Shown here: one piece after another, positions 26,329-33,301 of the stretch | How the letters are laid out: each line of letters begins with the position of its first letter | Position numbering within the stretch: the first letter of the stretch is position 1 | Program-made: the position numbers and the translations under genes | Notes under the pieces: model-generated | Database searches by the model: none | Told to the model about the DNA's origin: nothing | The model's input: the letters and a program-made list of their open reading frames with translations, nothing else | IMG/VR virus record: IMGVR_UViG_2778261630_000006 | Span: 1-39,415 of that record | Direction: 5' to 3' (one strand) | Length of the DNA: 39,415 nucleotides | DNA from: a virus | Lineage: Duplodnaviria > Heunggongvirae > Uroviricota > Caudoviricetes

Positions 26329-28209
26329 TTAATACTCCGTCACGTTTTCCTGTCGCCACGCCTCGTCATATTCCGATTTCGGCATATTGGCGATGTAGCT
26401 ATATGGCGATCCTGATTCAAGTTGCAGGAACTGGTGCGATTGTTCGTCAAGGAACAACGGGACACCACCTTCCCAACCTTCGCCGTTACGTTGTTTTTCA
26501 AGCATCAAAACAGATGCCGGAGATGCCAGTAGCTGTTCGTCCTTCTCTGACATCTTTTCACCACTCTGAACTCTCTGTAACGCTCTCTCGCGAGCCTTGT
26601 TACGCCAGATGATGAAAAGGTTGTCTGTCAGGTCTGTTATCGCTCCAGAGCCTTTTACGTCCATTTTCCCGGTTGGTTTTTCTTCGCTGTCTCCTTTTCG
26701 CGAGTGAGTAACGAGAATGACGTGGGAGTTTGTTTTGTTTTTGAAGTCGCAAATCGAGTCAACAAACGCCTTCTGCCCGTTATAGTCATCGTCGCCTATG
26801 CCACATTTCATCAGGCTGTCGATGATGAATAACTGGATCCCGTATCGGCGGCGAGCGTAGTCGAATATTTCGATCAGCCTGTCGGCTTTCGCCGTTCCGG
26901 TCAGGCCAAACACCCAAAGTCTTTCGTCATAAAATTTAAATGCAGAGTCAATTTCCAGCACTGGCGGCATCTTGCAGCACGTCGCCTGACGGGTAAGGCG
27001 CTTAAGGAGAATACCAGGCTTCAGCTCAAGTGACGCGATGCACGTCTTCACACCCTGACGCATTGCCTCAAGTGCCATATGCCCGACAACCTCCGTTTTT
27101 CCGTGACCGTTCACACCATTGACCAGCGTCAACTCTGCCTCACGGAACTGGAATTTATCTGCCAGAGATTCCCACGGTGGATTAAACAGATACTGCTGCT
27201 TGCCGTAGAAAGCGTTGATAGTGTCCTGGTAAAACTCTCGCGCACTGTAGAGTTCTTCAGGATCGAAGTAGGATGCCGTGCCGATGTACTGCCAGATTTC
27301 ATCCTCGGTAACACCGTTCATCAGGCATTCGTTGATGTCTTTGTACGGCAGAGTAACAAGACGGCAACGATGTTCACCGAGTCGGCTTGCGATTTCCCTT
27401 GCGGCTTCACGACCAACATCATCAACATCCATCGAGATGAATATTTCCTCAAACCTGTCGAGGTTGTGATACTCAAACTCAATCCACTGTTGCTTAGCGC
27501 CTTTCCCGCCACCAAACGGCACGGATAACGCCGAGATGCCGTATTGCGCATAGCTCATACAATCAATTTCGCCTTCGCAAAGTACAACCGCCCTCACGCC
27601 AGCGTCCAGAGCCTGCCATCCGAACAGACAAGGTTCGCAATCACCTTCTGCCATAATGACTTTCTTCCCGTCCGGGCGCTCAGTGCTGATTCGCTTGACC
27701 TGCAACAACTCACCATCGCGTTTGTACGGAATCACCAGAGCATCCAGTTCCCGCTCTCCATTCCACACCTTGCCGCTGACAACCTCGTAGCGCTTTACGA
27801 TTTCTGGCGATATGCCACGCGATTGCAGGTACTCAAGATGGGATTCTGTTCTGGTAACGTAGCGGGCGATTTTCTTGCGATCAGGTCTGGAGAATTTCTT
27901 CTCACGTTTGGCATCGAAATGGTGATCGTCATCCTTGATACCGAGAAATGCTTTCGCTTCCTGCATAGCCTGATGCAGGTTAATTCCTCGACATGCCATC
28001 CACAAATCAAGCATGTCACCGCCGTCTCCCTCAGCGAAATCAGCCCATTTTTTCTTGCCGCTAAGGTTGACCTTAAGGCTGTTTCCCTTGTCACCGTTAA
28101 CGTTACCGGCAACCCACTCATGCCCCTCTTTCTTGCCGTTTGGCAACAGGTGCGGAGCCACCCTGTCAACCTGCGCCCAAAGCAGGTCGCTGAGTTCACT
28201 TGGCGTCAT
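26329..28209 (-). CDS. Primase/helicase (TOPRIM domain plus DnaB-like ATPase)
   Basis: Toprim acidic cluster (LCEGEIDCMS), Walker A GVNGHGKTE, Walker B LFIIDSLMK. Confidence 0.8.
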   Translation of the reverse strand: MTPSELSDLLWAQVDRVAPHLLPNGKKEGHEWVAGNVNGDKGNSLKVNLSGKKKWADFAEGDGGDMLDLWMACRGINLHQAMQEAKAFLGIKDDDHHFDAKREKKFSRPDRKKIARYVTRTESHLEYLQSRGISPEIVKRYEVVSGKVWNGERELDALVIPYKRDGELLQVKRISTERPDGKKVIMAEGDCEPCLFGWQALDAGVRAVVLCEGEIDCMSYAQYGISALSVPFGGGKGAKQQWIEFEYHNLDRFEEIFISMDVDDVGREAAREIASRLGEHRCRLVTLPYKDINECLMNGVTEDEIWQYIGTASYFDPEELYSAREFYQDTINAFYGKQQYLFNPPWESLADKFQFREAELTLVNGVNGHGKTEVVGHMALEAMRQGVKTCIASLELKPGILLKRLTRQATCCKMPPVLEIDSAFKFYDERLWVFGLTGTAKADRLIEIFDYARRRYGIQLFIIDSLMKCGIGDDDYNGQKAFVDSICDFKNKTNSHVILVTHSRKGDSEEKPTGKMDVKGSGAITDLTDNLFIIWRNKARERALQRVQSGEKMSEKDEQLLASPASVLMLEKQRNGEGWEGGVPLFLDEQSHQFLQLESGSPYSYIANMPKSEYDEAWRQENVTEY

Positions 28210-28316
28210 GATTCCCTCAGATTGAGATTTTTAAACCAGAAATCGACAAACGAAATACTTAACCAGCCGTGGTTATAACCAGCGACCAGTAGCGATTTGA
28301 TTTTTGATTTCATGGT

Positions 28317-29177
28317 TCACCTGTCGAAAAACACGTAGCCAGTTTTCGATACGGTGATTGCAGATGATGGTTTGGATTGTGGTTGAATAGTTTCTGGCTT
28401 CTCGTCGTTCCAGCGTTGACCGTTCAGGTAGCTCGATGGTAACAACCTGTCGAATCCGAACTGCTTACCATTCCTGCATGCGATGTCTTCTGCCAGCATC
28501 GTGGCAAACTCGCTTGCCGTACCCATGGTAGTTTTACGCCATTCCCTGAACTGTGTTCTGAATGCCGAAGCTGCGTTTTTCTTCCCGGCTTTCCGCATGC
28601 CTGCACACCAGAATATTTCCTCGAATGCCTTGTCGGTTTCTTCGTGACGGTCAGGTGATTTTTCACACTCCGTCCGAACACTTTCGGACATAGTGTTTTT
28701 ATTATTTCTTTTTTCTTTTGTAATAGTTTCTTTTGTGTGTCCCTGTTTTGGTGACAGCGCTGTCACCGTTTTGGTGACACTTTTTGTCACCAATGCAGTG
28801 ACATTATCACCAGAGTAGTGACACCCTTCGATTTGCCATTCTTCGATGTTCTTGTTAGGACCGATTTGCTGGCCTTCGCGAAGGATAACCTTCATCGCGA
28901 TAAGCTCATTCTTGGCCTTGTTTACCTTCTGTCTTGGCAGCCTGGTAATTTGAGCTAACTGACTATCAGAGATGCGATCCATCTTTTTACCGTAGCCGTA
29001 TGTTTTACGGCATATAGCGTGGGCAACCTTGCTCTGATTTTTCGTTAAATCTGCGCCGATAAGCTCTTCATACAGGGCATTTGCAAGACGGGTATAACCA
29101 TCTTCAACTTCTGCCACACGACGCTCCACAGGCCGTTGTGAAGGCCTTAAATGTGTTACGGTTGCAAGATTACTCAT
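28317..29177 (-). CDS. Replication initiator (lambda O-like N-terminal domain)
   Basis: N-terminal [14 protein letters not shown]...[33 protein letters not shown] resembles lambda O; iterons lie inside the linker. Confidence 0.8.
28690..28830. repeat. Candidate origin of replication: four dyad iterons plus adjacent AT-rich tract, inside the initiator gene
   Basis: GGTGACAGCGCTGTCACC, GGTGACAC-TTTTTGTCACC, AGTGACATTATCACC and AGTGACACC spaced about 20-24 bp apart (28750-28826), then an AT-rich tract (28690-28740). Confidence 0.6.
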
Positions 29178-29316
29178 GACCTTTCTCCTTCTGCATCAGC
29201 TTCACTTTTTCCAACTCAGCCCGGAATCGACCAGGCTGCTTGAAGCTGGACAGGAAGCGATCACGTAGTATGTGTTTGTGAATTTTGTCCTGGTAAGGAC
29301 TGAGTTGTTTTGTCAT
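29170..29316 (-). CDS. Small ORF (48 aa) between cII and the initiator
   Basis: AGGAG ribosome-binding site 7 nt before ATG (29314-29316); stop overlaps the initiator start. Possibly the P22 orf48 equivalent. Confidence 0.5.
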
Positions 29317-29348
29317 AATTACTCCTGTTGATAGATCCAGTAATGACC

Positions 29349-29642
29349 TCAGAACTCCATCTGGATTTGATCAGAACGCTCGGTTGCCGCCGGGCGTTTT
29401 TTATTGGTGAGAATCGAAGCAACTTGTCGTGCCAATCGAGCCATGTCGTCGTCAACGACGCCCCATTCAAGAACAGCAAGCAGCATTGAGAACTTTGGAA
29501 TCCAGTCCCTCTTCCACCTGCTGATCTGCGACTTATCAACTCCCACAGCTTCCGCTGTCTTCTCAGTTCCAAGCATTGCGATTTTGTTAAGCAACGCACT
29601 CTCGATTCGTAGAGCCTCGTTGCGTTTGTTTGCACGAACCAT
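29349..29642 (-). CDS. cII: Transcription activator CII
   Basis: [75 protein letters not shown]... matches lambda CII. Confidence 0.95.
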
Positions 29643-29721
29643 ATGTAAGTATTTCCTTAGATAACAATTGATTGAATGTATGCAAATAAATGCATACACC
29701 ATAGGTGTGGTTTAATTTGAT

Positions 29722-29753
29722 GCCCTTTTTCAGGGCTGGGATGTGTAAGAGCT
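29722..29753 (-). promoter_or_regulatory. nutR (boxA and boxB) in the cro-cII interval
   Basis: Minus strand GCTCTTACACA ... GCCCTGAAAAAGGGC, the lambda nutR arrangement. Confidence 0.7.
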
Positions 29754-29761
29754 GGAATGTC

Positions 29762-29977
29762 TTAAGCGGCTTTGTGTTCCGGCGGGAACACGTCATCAAG
29801 ACTGACTTTTGCGCCTAACTTGTTTAGGCACTCAACAAGAGCACGGCATGTTTTAAGGTCTGGGAAGCGACGACCAGATTCCCAATGTCCGATAGCTCCC
29901 TGTGTGCATCCAACTGCCTTAGCAAGTGTTGTTTGAGAGATATTCAGTGACTCTCGATATTTTCGTAGGTTGCTCAT
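29762..29977 (-). CDS. cro: Cro-type repressor (HTH), non-lambda specificity
   Basis: 71 aa; HTH QTTLAKAVGCTQGAIGHWESGRR. Divergent from cI across the operator region. Confidence 0.8.
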   Translation of the reverse strand: MSNLRKYRESLNISQTTLAKAVGCTQGAIGHWESGRRFPDLKTCRALVECLNKLGAKVSLDDVFPPEHKAA

Positions 29978-30094
29978 ATGCCCTCCATAGTAACCATGAA
30001 ACAATAATACGATATGTACTTTTAGAATGCAAACAAAAAATACATCTTGTGCATGGATGGTTTTAGTACAGAGCGTAATAATAAGGGTATGAAA
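29978..30094. promoter_or_regulatory. Right operator region with divergent PR and PRM
   Basis: Three related 15-bp dyad sites (30006-30020, 30039-30053, 30065-79), consensus A(G/A)TACA-N3-(C/T)GT. Minus-strand PR candidate TTGCAT-17-TATTAT (30004-30032) overlaps site one. Confidence 0.55.
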
Positions 30095-30748
30095 ATGAAA
30101 TGGTATGAACTGGCTAGATCCAGAATGAAAGAGCTCGGCATAACTCAAGAGAAGTTAGCTGAAGAGCTTGGTATGACGCAGGGTGGAATTGGTCACTGGT
30201 TGCGCGGATCTCGTCATCCATCTCTTGACGAGATTGGTGTGGTGTTTAAATACCTTGGTATTGATAACGTCTCATTCAACCACGACGGTACATTTTCACC
30301 TGTTGGCGAATACTCATCTGCCCCCGTTAAAAAACAATATGAGTACCCTGTTTTTTCTCATGTTCAGGCCGGGATGTTCTCGCCTGAGCTTAGAACCTTT
30401 ACCAAAGGTGATGCGGAGAGATGGGTCAGCACAACCAAAAAAGCCAGTGATTGTGCGTTCTGGCTTGAAGTTGAAGGTAATTCCATGACCGCGCCAACAG
30501 GATCCAAGCCAAGCTTTCCTGACGGGATGTTAATTCTCGTTGACCCTGAGCAGGCTGTTGAGCCAGGTGATTTCTGCATAGCCAGACTTGGTGGTGACGA
30601 GTTTACCTTCAAGAAACTGATCAGGGATAGCGGTCAGGTGTTCCTACAGCCACTAAACCCGCAATATCCAATGATTCCATGCAATGATAGCTGTTCCGTA
30701 GTAGGGAAAGTTATCGCCAGCCAGTGGCCTGAAGAGACATTTAGTTAA
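30095..30748 (+). CDS. cI: CI repressor: novel HTH N-domain fused to a lambda-type C-terminal (S24/LexA-like) domain
   Basis: C-terminal half from [21 protein letters not shown] onward matches lambda CI including the SMTAPTGSK...DGM cleavage region; N-terminal 80 aa differ. Start 30095 (AAGGG ribosome-binding site) or 30089. Confidence 0.85.
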
Positions 30749-30778
30749 CAGCCTCACCACTCTAAAACACACAACAAT

Positions 30779-30808
30779 AACCCGACCTTAGCGTCGGGTT
30801 TTCTTTTT
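30779..30808 (+). terminator. Rho-independent terminator after cI
   Basis: AACCCGAC-CTTAGC-GTCGGGTT hairpin followed by TTCTTTTT. Confidence 0.7.
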
Positions 30809-30827
30809 CCAAAATATAAACCCATTA

Positions 30828-30903
30828 AATACAAAGTGTTATAAAAAACCAATTATATTTAGAACATTTTGTATTGACTCGATAAAGTACAAATCGTACT
30901 ATT
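30828..30903. promoter_or_regulatory. Left operator and pL
   Basis: Plus-strand TTGACT (30874-79), 17-bp spacer, TACTAT (30897-30902). Dyad AGTACAAATCGTACT (30886-30900) overlaps the -10; related site at 30828-30842. Confidence 0.55.
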
Positions 30904-30942
30904 TAGCCATCAGCAGGACGCACTGACCACCATGAAGGTGAC

Positions 30943-30972
30943 GCTCTTAAAAATTAAGCCCTGAAGAAGGGC
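30943..30972 (+). promoter_or_regulatory. nutL (boxA and boxB)
   Basis: CGCTCTTAAAAATTAAGCCCTGAAGAAGGGC, the lambda nutL arrangement. Confidence 0.75.
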
Positions 30973-31082
30973 AGCATTCAAAGCAGAAGGCTTTGAGTAG
31001 CGCGAAATGCAGCTGCAAGACAGCAACCGTGGAGATAAGCATCACGGCGCGTTACTCAAAGCTAACTGACAGGAGAATCCAG

Positions 31083-31409
31083 ATGGATGCACAAACACGC
31101 CGCCGCGAACGTCGCGCAGAGAAACAGGCTCAATGGAAAGCAGCAAATCCCCTGTTGGTTGGGGTAAGCGCAAAACCAGTTAACCGCCCTATTCTCTCGC
31201 TGAATCGCAAACCGAAATCACGAGTAGAAAGCGCACTGAATCCGATAGACCTTACGGTGCTGGCTGAATACCACGAACAGATTGAAAGCAACCTGCAACG
31301 TATTGAGCGCAAGAATCAGCGCACATGGTACAGCAAGCCACGCAGTGAAATGGGCGTGACTTGTGTTGGTCGCCAGAAAATGAAATTAGGCAGCAAACCA
31401 CTTATTTGA
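31083..31409 (+). CDS. N: Antiterminator N
   Basis: MDAQTRRRERRAEKQAQWKAANPLLVGVSAKPVNRPILSLNRKPKSRVESALNPIDLTVLAEYH... matches lambda N (Arg-rich motif). Confidence 0.95.
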   Translation: MDAQTRRRERRAEKQAQWKAANPLLVGVSAKPVNRPILSLNRKPKSRVESALNPIDLTVLAEYHEQIESNLQRIERKNQRTWYSKPRSEMGVTCVGRQKMKLGSKPLI

Positions 31410-31420
31410 GAGGAATTAAT

Positions 31421-32044
31421 ATGTCATCAATCCGCTTAACAACGAGTATGAAAGAGAAAATCGCTCGTAACGCTTTAATTAAATCTGGGGTTTTCACTGA
31501 GCTTGAAGAAGTAACAAAGTTAAAGAACCAGCTTGCACTTGACGCCAGAGTTGTTGTGTTTGGCGGTAAAAAGAAAACTGAGGAAGTGGATCAGTTATCA
31601 TCCAAGTTAATGGCTATAAGCGAAGAACTTGAAAAGCTGGGATGTTCATTTTACTCATGCGATGCCCGTTCAACTTCAATTTATCTGACTGTATCTGGCA
31701 GAAGGGTTGGCTGGTATTCATATGGGAAAGACGGCAACGGCGAAGATATATTGCTCCCTACTCCGACCAAAGATAAATGCATGTTTAGCGCAGAACACGA
31801 AATAACAAAAAGGTTTGATGAAATCTGCGCATTGCAACAAAAACTTGAAGCCAAGAAAAAGGATATCGAATCAAATGTATGGGCTGCTTTGAACTCAGTC
31901 ACAACAGTTAAGCGACTTATTGAAGTTTGGCCTGAAAGCAAAGAGTTGCTACCAAAAGAAGCAGATAAAGCAAGTACAGCACTTCCTGCTTTACGGGTAG
32001 AAGATTTGAATAAGATGATTGGACTTCCTTCCGAGGTCGCATAA
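31421..32044 (+). CDS. Hypothetical protein (207 aa) immediately downstream of N; AT-rich accessory gene
   Basis: GAGAGGA ribosome-binding site and ATG 12 nt after the N stop. No family recognised. Confidence 0.6.
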   Translation: MSSIRLTTSMKEKIARNALIKSGVFTELEEVTKLKNQLALDARVVVFGGKKKTEEVDQLSSKLMAISEELEKLGCSFYSCDARSTSIYLTVSGRRVGWYSYGKDGNGEDILLPTPTKDKCMFSAEHEITKRFDEICALQQKLEAKKKDIESNVWAALNSVTTVKRLIEVWPESKELLPKEADKASTALPALRVEDLNKMIGLPSEVA

Positions 32045-32695: not shown

Positions 32696-33301
32696 ATGAG
32701 CAAAGAATTTTACGCAAGACTGGCAGCTATTCAGGAGAATCTGAACGCGCCAAAGAATCAGTACAACTCATTCGGTAAATATAAATACAGAAGCTGCGAA
32801 GATATTCTTGAAGGCGTTAAGCCGTTACTGAATGGCCTGTTTTTATCAATCAGCGATGAAGTTGTGTTGATTGGTGATCGGTATTATGTGAAAGCCACGG
32901 CAACTATTACCGATGGCGAAAACAGTCATACGGCAACCGCTCTTGCACGAGAGGAAGAAAGCAAGAAAGGAATGGATTCTGCACAAGTTACGGGAGCTAC
33001 AAGCTCTTATGCACGCAAGTATTGCCTCAATGGTTTGTTCGGCATTGATGATGCGAAAGATGCAGATACCGACGAGCATAAACATCAGCAGAACGCAGCA
33101 GCAAAGCAATCAAAACCATCACCTACACCTGAACAGGTTCTAAAAGCATTCACTGACGCAGCAATGCAGAAAAACACCGTAGAAGAGCTTAAACAGGCGT
33201 TCGCCAAAGCGTGGAAGATGCTCGAAGGTACACCGGAGCAGCACAAAGCGCAGGACGTTTACAACATCAGACGAGACGAATTAGAAGGGGCAACTGCTTA
33301 A
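32696..33301 (+). CDS. erf: Erf single-strand annealing protein
   Basis: MSKEFYARLAAIQENLNAPKNQYNSFGKYKYRSCEDILEGVKPLL... matches P22 Erf. Confidence 0.92.
   Translation: MSKEFYARLAAIQENLNAPKNQYNSFGKYKYRSCEDILEGVKPLLNGLFLSISDEVVLIGDRYYVKATATITDGENSHTATALAREEESKKGMDSAQVTGATSSYARKYCLNGLFGIDDAKDADTDEHKHQQNAAAKQSKPSPTPEQVLKAFTDAAMQKNTVEELKQAFAKAWKMLEGTPEQHKAQDVYNIRRDELEGATA

Follow-up and report, generated by a model that had tools for sequence, protein, structure and literature searches.

The immunity region of the analysed viral DNA (39.4 kb, referred to here over its whole length as the window) contains two genes, cro (29762..29977, minus strand) and cI (30089 or 30095 to 30748, plus strand), which diverge from a right operator region (OR) of three sites. 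To the right of cI follow a terminator hairpin (30779-30800) and a left operator region (OL), also of three sites, which overlaps the promoter pL. Divergent cI and cro genes around an OR of several sites, and a further operator cluster at pL, make up the anatomy of a CI/Cro switch, and the operators overlap pR, pL and the maintenance promoter pRM, the overlap of OR3 depending on a pRM that is predicted. The frames of cI, cro, cII and N are open over their full length. Cro, the N-terminal domain of cI and both operator regions give no alignment with lambda DNA, and the swap has its junctions in the inter-domain linker of CI, at the stop codon of cro and at the start of pL. By its sequence, the region appears to be an intact lambda-style lysis/lysogeny switch, with a repressor in which a DNA-binding domain foreign to lambda is fused to the C-terminal domain of lambda itself. 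All features listed for this region in a first-pass annotation are present where it had placed them, and its description as a lambda-type switch with swapped specificity is borne out by both the CI/Cro anatomy and the different operator specificity.

The start codon of cI is ambiguous (30089 or 30095), with three different starts annotated across database records. Pfam assigns residues 11-58 to HTH_3 and residues 87-209 to Peptidase_S24, and the gene divides into an N-terminal HTH domain plus linker (30089..30337, plus strand), which has no lambda DNA match, and a lambda-type S24 domain (30338..30748, plus strand; Peptidase_S24 E 9e-29), which matches lambda repressor structures (PDB 3bdn, E 2e-96). 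Lambda DNA homology begins at 30338, corresponding to residue 84 when counted from the ATG at 30089 and to residue 82 from the ATG at 30095, the latter in agreement with the boundary near residue 82 proposed earlier. The C-terminal domain is about 98.5% identical to lambda over 134-135 amino acids (132/135, three differences) and 93.2-93.8% identical at the nucleotide level. The Ala-Gly cleavage site (residues 94-95) and the Ser132/Lys175 dyad align to those of lambda and are intact, such that cI combines an HTH N-domain with a LexA-like S24 C-domain carrying both the cleavage site and the catalytic residues. The nucleotide sequences of the C-domain alleles of lambda, the window and the Stx1 phage are roughly equidistant (93.2, 91.5 and 92.9%), differing mostly by synonymous changes, and Salmonella phage SPN9CC carries a full-length diverged CI homologue (N-domain 50%, C-domain 80%). 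This indicates that the domain combination is old, and on the same grounds the possibility that lambda donated the C-domain recently was rejected.

The N-domain aligns with lambda CI only over 29 amino acids of the helix-turn-helix (41%, E 6e-7), suggesting that the two belong to one fold family, but are not detectably one allele. The claim that this domain is unrelated to lambda was therefore too strong, since both are HTH_3 domains, while the part of it that holds is the different lineage, the nearest distinct relatives being the repressors of the Salmonella phages L/ST64T (54%). Other sources of the N-domain were considered and rejected: lambda, with an alignment restricted to the HTH; 434/P22, with P22 C2 giving a weak match (E 6e-3, to Cro); and the HK620 cI, with 61% identity over 33 amino acids and a lambda-type Cro as partner. 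HK620 cI nevertheless has features in common with the N-domain and operators described here, namely the helix TQGAVGHY and an ATAC-N5-GTAT core; its C-terminal domain is 40% identical, and its record describes it as similar to 434 and L cI.

Cro is a protein of 71 amino acids and of the all-helical HTH_3 type (Pfam HTH_3, E 1.4e-12), not of the lambda-Cro type, and no alignment with lambda Cro was obtained. It resembles the N-domain of CI (35% identity over 62 amino acids, E 5e-13), and the recognition helices of the two are TQGGIGHW in cI and TQGAIGHW in Cro, as the first-pass annotation had noticed.

On the minus strand, pR (30004..30032) has a -35 element TTGCAT (30032..30027) and a -10 element TATTAT (30009..30004); the spacer is 17 bp when read directly, while a consensus scan returned TTTGCA/18/TATTAT, and the position is that of the putative rightward promoter annotated in AP005153. 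On the plus strand, pL (30874..30902) consists of TTGACT (30874-30879), a 17-bp spacer and TACTAT (30897-30902), with a start at ~30909. The pRM promoter (30054..30082, plus strand) was read from the sequence as a putative -35 TGGATG (30054-59) and -10 AATAAT (30077-82). The consensus scan did not report it, as is expected of a weak, activator-dependent promoter. Its start would lie at ~30089, the first ATG, which would give a leaderless cI mRNA as in lambda. On either side the region is bounded by lambda sequence. The segment 29309-29755 is 98.2% identical to lambda 38693-38247 and contains the lambda allele of cII (29349..29642, minus strand; Pfam Phage_CII, E 5e-48), the cII-binding site of pRE read as TTGC-N6-TTGC (29620-29633) and the nutR boxB hairpin in lambda sequence (29722..29736, minus strand; GCCCTTTTTCAGGGC on the plus strand). 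From 30908 on, the DNA is 100% identical to lambda 35583-35496, comprising the pL transcript start and nutL (boxB read at 30958-30972), followed by the lambda allele of the N antiterminator gene (31083..31409, plus strand; Pfam N36, E 1.5e-26; 94% nucleotide identity to lambda N).

The first-pass annotation had described 15-bp dyads in both operator regions. The dyads are present and the motif was confirmed, but there are six of them, three in each region, and not five. OR1 (AATACGATATGTACT, 30006..30020) overlaps the -10 and spacer of pR and differs at 2 of 17 positions from the published VT2-Sakai OR1 (AAGTACATATTGTATTT). OR2 (AATACATCTTGTGCA, 30039..30053), the weakest match, adjoins the -35 of pRM, with its centre at about -43 relative to the predicted pRM start, and has two central-spacer differences from its published counterpart. 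OR3 (AGTACAGAGCGTAAT, 30065..30079) overlaps the spacer and -10 of pRM, with 1/17 differences. On the left, OL3 (AATACAAAGTGTTAT, 30828..30842) differs from the published VT2-Sakai site at two positions, OL2 (AGAACATTTTGTATT, 30861..30875), which adjoins or overlaps the -35 of pL, at two positions, both central, and OL1 (AGTACAAATCGTACT, 30886..30900), which overlaps the -10 of pL, at one central position. Measured from centre to centre, OR1 and OR2 lie 33 bp apart and OR2 and OR3 26 bp; the distances in OL are 33 and 25 bp. The 18 bp separating OR1 from OR2 contain the -35 of pR and no matching site, and a fourth OR site there was rejected. The motif ARTACANNNYGT matches exactly six times in the window, three times in OR, three times in OL and nowhere else, compared with a mean of 0.99 in shuffled sequences, of which 0/100 reached six. 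The 15-bp palindrome ARTACRNNNYGTAYT, with at most one mismatch, gives four matches where 0.78 are expected, and each of them lies in OR or OL. The sites are not those of lambda, as had been claimed: no match to the lambda consensus (TATCACCGC... 17-mers) was found within three mismatches, and neither OR nor OL could be aligned with lambda.

Downstream of cI, the transcript is predicted to end at an intrinsic terminator (30779..30810, plus strand) with an 8-bp stem and a T-tract, the hairpin of which lies 30 bp 3' of cI (dG -12.4 kcal/mol, z -4.5). The terminator is orthologous to lambda tImm, the window segment 30771-30806 having 89% identity with lambda 35834-35799 at the 3' end of rexB. It was correctly noted before that cI is followed directly by this terminator and pL, and also that rexA and rexB are missing, since tblastn across the whole window gave no significant match to either (best E 2.3). 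The slot between cI and tImm bears cargo in relatives and is empty here; in Stx phages, by contrast, ~1.5 kb of ORFs lie between cI and OL. PADLOC and Pfam assigned no defence identity to the cargo ORFs of phi458 or the Stx1 phage, and for the cargo ORF of E212 they returned only an NYN domain and a weak HEC-09 match.

The region is the already described VT2-Sakai/Stx1-phage immunity type, named 'CI2c/Cro4' (Smith et al. 2012), and is not new. Alignment of cI and Cro to lambdoid families, proposed with the first-pass annotation as a check, leads to this type for both proteins. CI is identical at 212/219 residues to that of the group comprising the Stx1-converting phage, Stx2 phage II, Nil2, 2851 and VT2-Sakai, and Cro at 70/71 residues to that of the Stx1 phage, so that the Cro is that of the CI2c/Cro4 type. 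The N-domain shares 79/82 residues (96%) with the Stx-phage CI, the three differences (D47S, E48D, V61I) all lying outside an identical helix-turn-helix, which makes it the same DNA-binding domain. The C-domain in this type is also of the lambda type, and it has been reported that the C-terminus of lambda CI is in common with CI2c, while the N-terminus is unique (PMC3430580). The operator sequences OR1-3 and OL1-3 of VT2-Sakai have been published (PMC10742460 Table S1); the six 17-mers found here are the same operators in the same places, with one or two differences each (10/102 bases, mostly in the central spacers), and their positions agree with the 'putative operator' features of AP005153. 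The first-pass annotation would have given way if the N-domain had proved to be that of a well-known immunity type with different operators. The type is indeed known, but the operators published for it are these very dyads, which leaves the mechanism standing and removes novelty alone. Compared with VT2-Sakai (Sp5), AP005153, Stx2 phage II, Nil2 and 2851, the stretch cro-OR-cI is 93% identical in nucleotides, the allele in the window being ~8% diverged, and the flanks differ, in that AP005153 is annotated with HK022/HK97-like flanks, while cII, nutR, nutL and N of the window are lambda's own. In the accessible literature, no experiment was found in which a cognate CI or Cro of the VT2-Sakai type binds these dyads; the EMSA reported there concerns lambda CI at micromolar levels.

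Taken together, the region is predicted to be a functional lambdoid immunity region with the specificity of VT2-Sakai and Stx1-converting phages, set in an otherwise lambda-like early region (probability about 0.9). Operator binding, the order in which the sites fill, cooperativity, the leaderless start of cI and the immunity phenotype are in each case predictions. By analogy with lambda, CI dimers would bind the dyads ARTACR-N3-YGTAYT through the HTH_3 N-domain and its helix TQGGIGHW. In the lysogenic state, CI on OR1 would cover the -10 and spacer of pR, and CI on OL1 and OL2 the -10 and -35 of pL, so that the lytic promoters are off. OR2, ~43 bp upstream of the predicted leaderless start, would be placed to activate pRM, and OR3 over pRM could provide negative autoregulation. 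The lambda-type C-domain is expected to mediate dimerization and cooperativity, both pairwise and over long range, and to cleave CI itself at Ala94-Gly95 through Ser132/Lys175 when stimulated by RecA. In the lytic state, Cro, a short protein paralogous to the N-domain of CI and with a nearly identical recognition helix, would read the same dyads and turn pRM off. Establishment would use lambda's own cII and pRE, with transcription running antisense through the foreign cro into cI.

It is most improbable that the dyads are chance palindromes of A/T-rich intergenic DNA, with the true operators elsewhere. Both intergenic regions are indeed A/T-rich, and OR2 and OL3 each have two mismatches to the 15-bp consensus, but the six exact motif matches, all confined to OR and OL, far exceed the shuffled expectation, and half-site positions 4 and 5 (A and C) are invariant in 12/12 half-sites. 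Furthermore, sites are conserved where spacers have diverged: the OL of the Stx1 phage is 78% identical overall, with 40/45 operator positions identical compared with 27/44 of the others (Fisher p = 0.003), most operator differences falling within the central N3, and the same sites recur in L/ST64T. Somewhat less remote, yet still very unlikely, is a decayed or cryptic module that no longer works as a switch, as in the VT2-Sakai prophage, where a stop codon truncates the VT2-Sa cI (PMC3430580). The specificity module is found intact in 776/5426 complete E. coli genomes (~14%, about one in seven), and many of these copies lie in prophages that may or may not be viable. In the window, by contrast, cI, cro, cII and N are full-length, and the cleavage and catalytic residues as well as the six operators are intact. 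In addition, the module is present in phage sequences that, to judge by the source given in their records (sewage inflow, lab host), come from isolated phages, with regions 99.3-99.6% identical in Dewey (source: sewage inflow), Louie, vB_EcoP-720R6 and vB_EcoP-683R2.

A wiring unlike that of lambda deserves more weight than either, although it too is improbable. Here cooperative binding at OR would take place between OR2 and OR3 or not at all, and pR would be repressed via OR1 alone together with OL-OR looping. This is suggested by the spacings at both operators. OR1-OR2 measures 33 bp where lambda has 24 bp, and the -35 of pR lies outside OR2, so that a lambda-style OR1-OR2 cooperativity is not guaranteed. 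The same asymmetric geometry is conserved in L/ST64T despite a different C-domain, and 933W shows that lambdoid switches can do without adjacent-site cooperativity (PMC3317979). On the other hand, the C-domain is 98.5% identical to lambda and its cooperativity surface is expected to be kept, and OR1-OR2 cooperativity is still plausible because 33 bp correspond to ~3.1 helical turns, placing the sites on the same face. With OR stretched in this way, a lambda C-domain could be pairing sites other than lambda's OR1-OR2.

Compared with lambda, the region is alike in overall architecture, the CI C-terminal domain, tImm, the pL start and nutL, cII, pRE and nutR, as well as in the OL1-OL2 spacing (25 bp here, 24 bp in lambda) and the predicted position of OR2 relative to pRM. 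The differences comprise the CI N-domain, all operators and Cro, lambda Cro belonging to a different fold family, and the absence of rexA and rexB. The region is thus not imm lambda, which is defined by its operators, its CI N-domain and Cro, and rexAB co-transcribed with cI. The N-domain/Cro/operator module is related to that of the Salmonella phages L/ST64T, in which Cro is 70% identical and has the recognition helix CTQGAIGH(W/Y), and the repressor (c2) has a 54% identical N-domain with the helix TQGAIGHW. The operator consensus is the same, with AATACATTTCGTACT and AGTACATTTTGTATT twice, and the spacing is nearly so (34 and 26 bp at OR, 30 and 25 bp at OL). The host genus is different, however, and with only 47% identity in the C-terminal domain and 54% in the N-domain, the repressors are not alike over their whole length, so that the module is related without being of the same type. 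Tentatively, and with a good deal of doubt, the cro/OR/N-domain module may define a cross-genus specificity group of VT2-Sakai-type and L/ST64T phages with conserved consensus and spacing, in which case the two could be partially homoimmune.

The discovery value of the region is small, as the chimeric CI, the Cro and the six operators are already in GenBank (AP005153), published tables and comparative papers. Its practical relevance lies in being the immunity type of major Stx-converting phages. Carriers of the module, including this phage, are predicted to be homoimmune with those Stx phages, which could influence superinfection and the induction of prophages as well as recombination between Stx phages. 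The window also provides a clean natural example of modular exchange, in a compact form that shows the cargo slot between cI and tImm empty. The laboratory hybrids lambda imm434 and lambda imm21 likewise combine a lambda backbone with a foreign block of cro, operators and repressor specificity, bounded near nutR/cro and pL. The hybrid in the window differs from these in being natural and in having its left junction inside the cI linker, with the lambda C-domain retained.

The immunity region is oriented in reverse to that of lambda and consists of cII (29349-29642, minus strand; Pfam Phage_CII), cro (29762-29977, minus strand; 71 aa; Pfam HTH_3), a control region of 111 bp between cro and cI, cI itself (30089-30748, plus strand; 219 aa with the first of two ATGs as the start; Pfam HTH_3 and Peptidase_S24), a hairpin terminator 3' of cI (30779-30800), a second control region ending in the strong promoter pL (30874-30902; TTGACT, 17 bp, TACTAT) and N (31083-31409; Pfam N36). 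A 101-aa GTG-initiated ORF lying out of frame within cI (30183-30488, plus strand), whose counterpart is annotated as 'ORF b65' in the Stx1-converting phage AP005153, is probably spurious. In a blastn map against lambda (NC_001416), matching blocks are located at 29309-29755 (lambda 38693-38247, 98.2%; cII, pRE and nutR, to just beyond the lambda cro stop), 30338-30742 (lambda 37637-37233, 93.8%; cI C-domain), 30771-30806 (lambda 35834-35799, 89%; rexB 3' end and tImm, the terminator after rexB) and 30908-30995 (lambda 35583-35496, 100%; pL transcript start and nutL), and the N gene is 94% identical to lambda N. The first-pass annotation had proposed a chimeric cI with a lambda-type C-domain from about residue 82, near 30338; indeed, the block starts at 30338, which is residue 84 counted from the ATG at 30089 and residue 82 from the ATG at 30095. 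At protein level the C-domain differs from lambda by three substitutions (98.5% identity); its Ala-Gly cleavage site and Ser/Lys dyad are retained, and it matches crystal structures of the lambda repressor (3bdn, E 2e-96).

Lambda CI aligns with the cI N-domain solely within a 29-aa stretch of the helix-turn-helix (41%), and between Cro and lambda Cro there is no alignment. Cro is a paralogue of the cI N-domain: the two share 35% identity across 62 aa (E 5e-13), and their helix motifs are TQGAIGHW (Cro) and TQGGIGHW (cI). These comparisons bear out the earlier claim of a foreign N-domain with a matching cro. In an alignment to P22 C2 structures the helix segment is placed opposite SNVAISQW, which we take to be the recognition helix of P22 C2. 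Cro (29765-29977) aligns end to end with PDB 28tn, a solved 82-aa 'lambda repressor-like protein' (E 2.4e-16), and the alignment takes in the C-terminal motif DDVFPP; 28tn may serve as a template for the structure of Cro proteins of this family.

The motif ARTACANNNYGT has exactly six matches on both strands of the 39,415-bp window, compared with a shuffle mean of 0.99, and a count of six was reached in 0/100 shuffles. Full 15-bp dyads are present in OR, the operator cluster between cro and cI (OR1, 30006-30020; OR2, 30039-30053; OR3, 30065-30079), and in OL, the cluster at pL (OL3, 30828-30842; OL2, 30861-30875; OL1, 30886-30900), with half-site positions 4 and 5 (A and C) invariant in 12/12 half-sites. 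Thus, the motif predicted previously for both operator regions is confirmed and confined to them, but there are six sites rather than five. OR1 covers the -10 element and spacer of pR (minus strand, 30032..30004; TTGCAT, 17 bp, TATTAT), the -35 element of which is not overlapped by OR2; at pL, OL1 covers the -10 and OL2 touches the -35. A plausible maintenance promoter for cI, pRM, would have its -10 (AATAAT) at 30077-30082 and its -35 (TGGATG) at 30054-30059 and would start at about 30089, the first ATG of cI, placing the centre of OR2 near -43 and that of OR3 near -17, a layout much like that of the leaderless, CI-activated pRM of lambda. A consensus promoter scan gave no call for pRM, a weak promoter. 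Adjacent sites in OR are separated by 33 and 26 bp from centre to centre, and those in OL by 33 and 25 bp. Compared with the 24-bp spacing in lambda, OL1-OL2 (25 bp) is similar, whereas OR1-OR2 is 9 bp wider. The order of the OR distances, with OR1-OR2 at 33 bp and OR2-OR3 at 26 bp, is opposite to that expected if OR1 and OR2 cooperated as in lambda.

Across the block from cro to cI (29762-30748), identity is 93% to AP005153, Stx2 phage II, Nil2, 2851 and the PA-series Stx2a phages, the latter having been equated with the Sakai Stx2a prophage (PMC4587872), and 99.3-99.6% to four phages that are not Stx phages (vB_EcoP-720R6, Dewey, vB_EcoP-683R2 and Louie). CI is identical to that of the Stx1 phage at 212/219 aa, with three N-domain substitutions that all lie outside the helix-turn-helix, and Cro at 70/71 aa. 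In the AP005153 annotation, OR and OL each carry three features labelled 'putative operators' at positions corresponding to those in the window, and the six sites are reverse complements of the published VT2-Sakai operators (OR1, AAGTACATATTGTATTT; OR2, ATGCACAATGTGTATTT; OR3, TATTACGCTCTGTACTG; OL1, TAGTACGATATGTACTT; OL2, CAATACAATTTGTTCTA; OL3, TACAACGCTTTGTATTT; PMC10742460, Table S1), each differing from its counterpart at one or two bases, mostly within the central three. OL is 78% identical overall to that of the Stx1 phage, with 40/45 operator positions identical versus 27/44 others (Fisher p = 0.003), and the central spacer holds three of the five operator differences. The repressor of the VT2-Sakai type was named CI2c and its partner Cro4 by Smith et al. 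(2012), lambda CI having a carboxy terminus in common with CI2c and a unique amino terminus, which implies different DNA binding (PMC3430580). The earlier reading of a lambda-type switch with swapped specificity is therefore supported, but was already in print in that study, and the feature is common: the specificity module (cro, OR and N-domain) is found in 776/5426 complete E. coli genomes (115 records at ≥99% identity) and the compact cI-tImm-OL junction in 184.

The OL search also brought up two Salmonella phages, L and ST64T, whose Cro is 70% identical to that of the window (recognition helix CTQGAIGHY). The N-domain of their c2 repressor is 54% identical (helix TQGAIGHW), whereas the repressor C-domain is only 47% identical and of a different type. 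Their operators (OR about 1417-1491 and OL about 2229-2298 of L006, one of their two loci, L005/L006) have the same consensus as the window, AATACATTTCGTACT, and AGTACATTTTGTATT twice, conforming to ARTACR-N3-YGTAYT as in the E. coli VT2-Sakai type, and the sites are spaced nearly as in the window (OR, 34 and 26 bp; OL, 30 and 25 bp). Since Cro, N-domain and operators are alike but the C-domain differs, cro, operators and N-domain travel as one module that is joined to different C-domains, and cross-genus partial homoimmunity between the two groups is possible. The pairing with a lambda-type C-domain is not recent, because the C-domain alleles of lambda, the window and the Stx1 phage are about equidistant (93.2, 91.5 and 92.9% nt) with mostly synonymous differences, and a diverged homologue that extends over the whole of cI is present in Salmonella phage SPN9CC (N-domain 50%, C-domain 80%).

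Taken together, we consider it roughly 90% probable that the region is a working CI/Cro switch of VT2-Sakai specificity. CI would repress pR and pL via the six predicted dyads, with the lambda-type C-domain providing oligomerisation and RecA-dependent cleavage, while Cro would read the same predicted sites; lambda cII/pRE would set up repression and the cI transcript would stop at tImm. We infer from the sequence that the operators are bound, as well as the order and cooperativity of that binding and the immunity phenotype; no data on binding by the cognate CI were found in the accessible literature, where the only EMSA used lambda CI at micromolar concentrations.

Lambda RexA and RexB have no match in the window (tblastn, best E 2.3), in agreement with the earlier observation that cI is followed by a terminator with no rexAB. 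The hairpin (-12.4 kcal/mol, z -4.5) is the orthologue of the lambda terminator after rexB, with stem substitutions that preserve base-pairing. The interval from the cI stop to tImm/OL (30749-30810) is a variable cargo slot across relatives, which is empty in the window, Dewey and their close relatives, but contains rexAB in lambda, ~1.5 kb of small ORFs in the Stx1 phage (L001 3829-4954), a 348-aa ORF of no known function in phi458 (L008 2275-3321), a 285-aa ORF with an NYN domain in E212 (L010 1486-2343) and hkaS in HK620. The cargo-slot genes of the relatives are candidates for prophage-expressed defence genes; PADLOC identified none of them.

Among the neighbouring early genes, the replication module (26329-29177, minus strand) is not lambda O/P, but encodes a 286-aa O-like initiator and then a 626-aa primase/helicase fusion (phrog_239); the C-terminal half of the initiator matches a PHROG of no known function. 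The position held in lambda by sieB, ral and neighbours is taken, directly after N, by a 207-aa ORF (31421-32044, plus strand) with phrog_1965 as its sole match (no known function, E 3e-81). An Erf-like single-strand annealing protein (phrog_155; 32696-33301, plus strand) replaces lambda Red beta, adding to the mosaic nature of the early left operon.
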